Part shown: positions 10,337-10,482 of the stretch, in pieces | Layout: every line of letters begins with the position of its first letter | Position numbering within the stretch: the first letter of the stretch is position 1 | Source of the DNA: Escherichia coli | GTDB taxonomy: Bacteria > Pseudomonadota > Gammaproteobacteria > Enterobacterales > Enterobacteriaceae | Assembly: GCF_024700885.2 (NCBI RefSeq) | Contig: NZ_CP117016.1 | Direction: 5' to 3' (one strand) | Length of the DNA stretch: 64,000 nt | Position numbers and translations under genes: made by a program | Notes under the pieces: generated by a model | Told to the model about the DNA's origin: nothing | Databases searched by the model: none | What the model saw: the letters and a program-made list of their open reading frames with translations, nothing else

Positions 10337-10482
10337 GGTGCCCTCACCGACTTGAAACAGTGATCAGACTATAAAACAAAGCCCACAATGTAGCGGGCTT
10401 ACTCCCCTCTCCCTCCACTGAATGTGGACACATAGTGGAACAAAGAGAGATAAAACATTATAAATCAATCGGTTATTGAAAG

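Follow-up and report, generated by a model that had tools for sequence, protein, structure and literature searches.

Evidence for a P2-like prophage attachment site in the ihfA terminator of Escherichia coli

In the genome paper of E. coli SE11, a P2-like prophage, PP_SE11-4, was placed “between btuC and ihfA” and reported with a 25-nt duplication (Oshima et al. 2008; PMC2608844). Our literature search found only this paper naming btuC, ihfA and a prophage together. The site and the 25-nt duplication have thus been in print since 2008, and the mechanism is that of canonical P2, which is textbook knowledge. The arm-site consensus of P2-type integrases is tgTGGaCa (PMC3448106). Phages also integrate at small-RNA genes (tRNA, tmRNA, sdsR and cyaR), where the core covers the 3′ structure of the host RNA and the duplication restores that structure; the sdsR locus, for example, has been mentioned as a phage attachment site (PMC3333887). 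The interval between ihfA and btuC itself harbors a small RNA (sRNA). STnc540 was first identified between himA and btuC of Salmonella, and its Rfam model spans all 202 nt of that interval (PMC2515195); it has since been described as a ProQ-dependent sRNA of ~60–90 nt that is derived from the ihfA 3′UTR (PMC6315103).

We analyzed a 64,000-nt stretch of E. coli DNA (contig NZ_CP117016.1; hereafter, the window). Positions 10337–10503 are very probably the attR (POB′) of a P2-like (Peduoviridae) prophage that is integrated into the rho-independent terminator of ihfA. Site-specific recombination by a tyrosine integrase would have inserted the phage into this terminator, between ihfA and btuC. The locus resembles the small-RNA-gene integrations in that the core covers a host RNA 3′ structure which is restored by the duplication, but here the phage targets the 3′UTR of a protein-coding mRNA instead of an independent RNA gene. 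Two aspects are mildly new: the arm and integration host factor (IHF) anatomy of this specificity group, and the coincidence of the core with the terminator of the ihfA 3′UTR-derived sRNA STnc540. The core, arm and IHF anatomy is thereby given for a specificity that occurs in ~5% of complete E. coli genomes and has no isolated phage representative.

The junction and the attachment core

In K-12 MG1655, btuC and ihfA are adjacent genes separated by a 100-bp spacer. A preliminary description of the window had proposed that a prophage–host junction lies beside ihfA, at the position occupied by btuC in K-12, and alignment to prophage-free genomes bore this out. In BLAST comparisons with genomes lacking the prophage, the host match began exactly at window position 10479. 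On the phage side, a megablast search of 5,426 complete E. coli genomes showed that the match to P2-like prophages integrated elsewhere ended at 10347, just past the hok terminator. The prophage boundary is therefore located at 10478/10479. The features around it are as follows.

1–10478, unstranded: right-hand ~10.5 kb of a 34.4-kb P2-like prophage (E-1246 RefSeq annotation; Pfam GPD, Ogr_Delta and HOK_GEF)
9624–9884, plus strand: ogr/Delta-like late-gene activator (Pfam Ogr_Delta, E=5e-14; annotation)
10075–10215, plus strand: hok/gef-family toxin gene, between ogr and attP (Pfam HOK_GEF, E=4e-7)
10302–10337, plus strand: intrinsic terminator of the ogr/hok transcript (stem 10302–10329 plus T-tract; terminator scan; fold −16.3 kcal/mol)
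10348–10478, unstranded: P arm of attP, phage DNA specific to this integrase type (between the similarity limits at 10347 and 10479)
10479–10503, unstranded: attR core (POB′), AAAGAAAAAAGGCCGGAGAGCGGCC, a repeat of the attL core with 23/25 positions matching in this lineage
10478–10503, minus strand: ihfA intrinsic terminator, also the 3′ end of STnc540 (hairpin 10489–10503, U-tract 10478–10488; RNA folds and Rfam RF02082)
10521–10820, minus strand: ihfA (integration host factor alpha), the first host gene (annotation; protein WP_001229265.1, identical to that of K-12)

The left 24 kb of the prophage, including int and attL, lie outside the window. They were read from strain E-1246 (NZ_CP025573.1), whose sequence and the window have 3 differences in 12 kb. 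In its annotation, btuC and ihfA are separated by a complete P2-like prophage, and btuC is intact past attL; the size of the element is 34,361 bp when one core copy is counted. Both features that the preliminary description had suggested looking for at the far end were present in this genome: the direct repeat was located 928 bp past the 3′ end of int, and btuC was intact, with its start codon 58 bp from the attL core. The 58-bp stretch remains joined to btuC and contains a weak promoter-like match, based on consensus matching only, with a −35 hexamer that reaches into the edge of the core. Both btuC and ihfA are intact.

Three-way alignment of attB, attL and attR identified the att core as a 25-bp direct repeat, AAAGAAAAAAGGCCGCAGAGCGGCC; the attB of K-12 is likewise AAAGAAAAAAGGCCGCAGAGCGGCC. 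The core is present once in the empty site and is duplicated at the two ends of the prophage. Its pattern had a single match in the 64-kb window, where none was expected by chance. In the window, attR reads …GGCCGGAGAGCGGCC, with GGAGAG in the loop, followed by host DNA TTTTTAGTTAG…. In E-1246, attL reads …GGCCGCAAAGCGGCC, followed by phage DNA ATAAACAC…, and the predicted attP junction is …GGTTATTG-core-ATAAACAC…. In SE11, the attL and attR cores are identical to each other and to the K-12 attB at 25/25 positions.

The preliminary description had expected attR in the ~145 bp between the ogr/hok and ihfA terminators. The presence of attR was upheld, but its core lies not between the two terminators: it is the ihfA terminator itself, at 10479–10503. 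Only the first 4 bases of the core fall within the interval originally flagged (10337–10482), the remainder of which is the phage P arm. We considered whether the recombination core might instead be located elsewhere in this interval, the terminator repeat being coincidental, since the interval includes a conserved hairpin (10379–10400) and repeats. The three-way alignment led us to reject this idea as vanishingly improbable, because 10479–10503 is the only sequence common to attL, attR and attB, and no part of 10348–10478 was found in empty-site genomes or at attL.

Variants of the core were counted among the complete E. coli genomes as follows.

Canonical attR core (CAGAG loop): 230 genomes
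Window attR variant (GGAGAG): 3 genomes
CAAAG loop with the host right flank (natural host allele): 265 genomes
CAAAG loop joined to the phage arm (attL): 12 genomes

The window lineage carries CAAAG at attL and GGAGAG at attR, so that the two copies differ at 2/25 positions. These two mismatches were examined as an argument against the core and dismissed, as one of them is the common host allele (CAAAG) and the other is the rare variant found in 3 genomes. Strain 98228 also has the CAAAG allele, and its BtuC is identical to that of E-1246. On the simplest reading, the attB of the lineage carried CAAAG before integration; at core position 18, attL would then have kept the host base and attR would have received the phage base, while the C-to-G change at core position 16 would have arisen later in a small sub-lineage. 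Strain FDAARGOS_403 likewise has a host-like attL and a variant attR. Considering that this configuration occurs in both the window lineage and FDAARGOS_403, the effective crossover probably lies to the right of core position 18.

Arms, integrase and comparison with P2

Beyond the ogr/hok terminator, the sequence no longer resembles other P2-like prophages or phage P88. Most of the flagged interval consists of the P arm, which is conserved among 4 lysogens and contains the following motifs.

10379–10400, minus strand: terminator-like hairpin with a T-rich tail on the minus strand (terminator scan; fold −15.0 kcal/mol), invariant in 4 lysogens
10423–10430 and 10434–10441, plus strand: putative Int arm repeats TGTGGACA and aGTGGAac, 11 bp apart (pattern scan against tgTGGaCa)
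10463–10475, plus strand: IHF consensus site AATCAATCGGTTA, an exact match to WATCAANNNNTTR, 3 bp from the core

The P-arm repeats are located 36–37 bp from the core. The GTGGA cores of the repeats and the consensus positions of the IHF site were invariant in the 4 lysogens, while neighboring bases varied; within the IHF site, only the NNNN positions varied. Exact matches to WATCAANNNNTTR numbered 3 in the 64-kb window. In the P′ arm, which adjoins attL outside the window, the repeats TGTGGTCA and TGTGGATC (L001 9214 and 9225) are also 11 bp apart and lie 89 bp from the core, and two further IHF-consensus matches are present. From the motifs, we infer that Int and IHF bind at these arm and IHF sites. 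A retroregulatory role for the hairpin at 10379–10400, like that of lambda sib, was considered and dropped, because the core terminator sits between int and the hairpin in both the attP and the attL configurations and no configuration-dependent difference would be expected.

The integrase gene beside attL encodes a 325-aa protein with Int_N (E=2e-28) and Phage_integrase (E=8e-20) Pfam domains. In BLASTP, it shared 45% identity with P2 Int over 326 aa, that is, over the full length (E=3e-110). The 92-aa ORF in the cox position matched phrog_575, ‘Cox-like excisionase and repressor’ (E=1e-7); its homology to Cox is weak, as the BLASTP match to P2 Cox covered 25 residues only, and it had no Pfam hit.

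The element shares with P2 the arrangement ogr–terminator–P arm–IHF site–core–P′ arm–int. Both arms carry tgTGGaCa-type repeats as tandem pairs 11 bp apart, at arm–core distances of 36–37 bp (P) and 89 bp (P′) here versus 40 and 88 bp in P2. Next to the core, the IHF site takes the place of the IHF footprint annotated in the P2 attP, which abuts the P2 core, and the cores are of similar length (25 bp here and 27 bp in P2). The two differ in the sequence of the core and in the site, which is the ihfA terminator here and the cyaR/yegQ locus in P2. Other differences from P2 are that hok is located between ogr and attP, that the P arm has ~85 bp of additional DNA including a hairpin, that two cargo ORFs part the P′ arm from int, whereas the P′ arm of P2 overlaps the end of int, and that the FI–U module is inverted, whereas P2 has FI-FII-E-T-U-D on one strand.

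The preliminary description had reported that the P2 core, AAAAAATAAGCCCGTGTAAGGGAGATT, does not occur in the sequence and had concluded that the element probably uses a different attachment site. It had quoted that core correctly (P2 24356–24382), and no match was detected in the window even when up to 3 mismatches were allowed. Given the different core and an integrase with only 45% identity to P2 Int, the conclusion holds: the element belongs to another specificity group than P2, which uses the cyaR/locI site. The two sites nevertheless have the same geometry. The 27-bp core of P2 extends over the terminator of the CyaR sRNA, which makes up the last 24 nt of that RNA (Rfam, 100.7 bits; L009 757–845, at the yegQ–ogrK locus of strain 600468), so that in both cases the core lies over an sRNA terminator and the ogr side faces the 3′ end of the RNA. 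Since the cores at the ihfA/STnc540 and CyaR sites both coincide with sRNA terminators, P2-type integrases seem to favor the intrinsic terminators of small RNAs.

PP_SE11-4 of SE11 and the present element share the site, the 25-bp duplication and the int-proximal cargo proteins, and the P arm (window 10338–10478) is identical base for base. They differ in the cargo downstream of the replication gene and at the tail-fiber locus, and in the cores, which are perfect at attL and attR in SE11 but read CAAAG at attL and GGAGAG at attR in the window lineage.

The core as the ihfA terminator and the 3′ end of STnc540

On the ihfA strand, the core reads GGCCGCUCUGCGGCC and then UUUUUUCUUU, which is a rho-independent terminator located 17 nt past the ihfA stop codon. 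The ihfA mRNA and the sRNA STnc540 thus share the att core as their 3′-terminal structure. Since the duplicated 25 bp include the terminator in full, none of it is lost to ihfA at attR, and STnc540 should likewise keep its 3′ end there. The terminator folded with −16.7 kcal/mol in K-12 versus −13.5 kcal/mol at the window attR, where the U-tract is retained. With the C-to-G change, the stem has 5 pairs instead of 6 and the hairpin is weakened from −10.4 to −7.4 kcal/mol; the attR hairpin with the shortened stem was not called by a simple terminator scan.

The Rfam model for STnc540 (RF02082) scored 67.4 bits at the empty site of K-12 versus 37.3 bits in the window, the gathering threshold being 38. 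In the window, the last third of the model was aligned to unrelated P-arm DNA, the true last ~60 positions having been displaced to attL. The STnc540 species of ~60–90 nt presumably end at the terminator and so would be fully retained at attR.

Judging from sequence and predicted folds, the terminators at this locus are likely to function as such. Integration would then rebuild the ihfA terminator at attR and leave a second copy at attL. The phage C–int–cargo operon is transcribed toward btuC, in the same direction as ihfA, with the attL copy of the core downstream, and this copy would end the operon before btuC.

Since the ProQ-bound 3′ end of STnc540 is formed by the very hairpin that serves as the att core, lysogeny could conceivably act at the RNA level through this hairpin, coupling a phage that requires IHF to ihfA; we regard such an effect as quite improbable. 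If it did exist, phage-derived core variants at attR, such as the C-to-G change seen here, could alter ihfA termination, sRNA stability or ProQ binding, and through the hairpin copy at attL the int-operon transcript of the phage would acquire the same ProQ-recognized 3′ end.

Distribution, prophage contents and the rest of the window

Among the 5,426 complete E. coli genomes, the btuC–ihfA spacer was uninterrupted in 5,118 (94%), and the junction seen here was detected in 295 (~5%). The few leftover genomes include one with an IS200C insertion. In the prophage-free strain 98228, IS200C (L006 46126–46751) is located in the btuC–ihfA spacer, right beside the terminator hairpin, and this insertion accounts for at least one genome that has a split spacer without the prophage junction.

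According to the preliminary description, the proposed junction would fall if the phage-like region were ancestral in most E. coli; the counts show that it is absent from most. An ancestral origin would mean that K-12-like genomes lost the DNA by deletion. Nothing was found in its favor except the decay of some copies, such as that in isolate 02B21CPO003B, where a decayed prophage remnant carries ISEcp1-blaCTX-M-15. The 100-bp spacer, in contrast, is uninterrupted in 94% of the complete genomes, the 25-bp direct repeat at the ends of the element is present in exactly one copy in the empty site, and the element carries an integrase and attP-type arms. Ancestral DNA at this position is therefore next to inconceivable, and integration into the ihfA terminator is the preferred reading. 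The lysogens E-1246, SE11 and FDAARGOS_403 differ in their immunity and cargo genes, and this variety, together with the one decayed remnant, points to repeated acquisition at the site rather than a single ancestral event.

No integrase with more than 60% identity was found among sequenced phage records, and the excised attP junction (P arm, core and P′ arm) was found neither in INPHARED (50,697 phage records) nor in IMG/VR or JGI metagenome contigs. For these reasons, the activity of the int/att module was deduced from the population pattern, which is comparative evidence. The absence of attP from these collections does not prove inactivity. The attL junction had no match in 100,044 GTDB species-representative genomes.

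It might be supposed that the junction is genuine but that this copy is defective, unable to excise and inherited only vertically. In line with this, no attP form was found in the three collections and no isolated phage relative is available, the E-1246 record contains three small pseudogene fragments in the early region, and attR has the rare C-to-G change (3 genomes), with attL and attR differing at 2 positions. However, the annotation gives intact genes for Int, C, the Cox-like protein, replication, portal, terminase, capsid, lysis and tail, and the SE11 and FDAARGOS_403 copies differ in cargo and immunity at the same site, implying repeated independent integrations. We consider a defective copy unlikely, although it deserves more weight than an ancestral origin.

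The position of the boundary also bears on gene content surveys. A 2026 survey of 5,945 P2-like virus genomes listed the BtuC permease as a putative auxiliary metabolic gene (PMC13100340). Since btuC has a P2-like prophage as a neighbor, at a distance of 58 bp, in ~5% of complete E. coli genomes, this call may be a prophage-boundary artifact. The boundary defined here guards against scoring the neighboring btuC as phage cargo.

The part of the prophage within the window contains a tail fiber assembly gene, an acetyltransferase cargo gene, U-T-E-FII-FI on the minus strand, gpD, a 386-aa cargo ORF, ogr and hok. In this tail module (1291–8131), gpD is on the plus strand, opposite to U-T-E-FII-FI, so that FI and D are divergent. 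We considered whether the inverted FI–U tail module was a strain-specific rearrangement and rejected this, because SE11, FDAARGOS_403 and 02B21CPO003B have the same tail module arrangement as the window; the inverted arrangement is normal for this P2-like lineage. RefSeq places gpD at 7343–8131, but its ORF is open as far back as 6902, which leaves 25 bp to the start of FI. Upstream of hok and overlapping its start, an Rfam sok match below threshold (49.2 bits versus 59) was observed at 9929–10088 on the plus strand, which is consistent with a hok/sok-type module between ogr and attP.

Cargo was observed at several places. Pfam, PADLOC and PHROG scans of the cargo ORFs yielded no functional assignment. 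The 386-aa ORF (8262–9422, minus strand), located between gpD and ogr, had no match in Pfam, PHROG or PADLOC. At the same position, FDAARGOS_403 has a DUF3800 protein gene and ISKpn26, and 02B21CPO003B has another ORF together with ISEcp1-blaCTX-M-15. The locus is a candidate cargo or defense hotspot. Between the P′ arm and int, the element carries two small ORFs of 145 and 120 aa (phrog_9415 and phrog_4293; L001 9250–10049), which appear to be co-transcribed with int, and FDAARGOS_403 has a single different ORF (phrog_14142) there; relative to P2, this gap is an extra cargo slot. A hexapeptide-repeat acetyltransferase gene (557–1120, minus strand; Pfam Hexapep, phrog_2154) is located between the tail-fiber assembly gene and gpU. 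In other lysogens, this slot is occupied by a serine O-acetyltransferase gene, a GT9 glycosyltransferase gene, or an invertase gene with alternative fiber genes, and it may be a lysogenic-conversion (O-antigen modification) locus.

On the host side, ihfA is followed in turn by pheT, pheS, rplT, rpmI, infC and thrS. The preliminary description had everything to the right of ~10.5 kb following the K-12 order. This is correct from ihfA to thrS (~17.7 kb) but not beyond, as collinearity with K-12 stops at thrS (15766–17694). After thrS, a P-loop NTPase gene (~18433–20175, plus strand) is followed by a second, lambdoid prophage that extends from ~20657 to past the end of the window at 64000. Its genes include those for tail fibers, gpJ, lom, capsid and terminase, iss (~44809–45102), lysis genes, Q and emrE, as well as a ybcK-like recombinase gene, O/P, a cI-like repressor gene, bet/exo/gam and an integrase gene that is cut by the window end. 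With prophages on both flanks, the 7-kb ihfA–thrS block of translation genes is therefore sandwiched between the P2-like and the lambdoid prophage.
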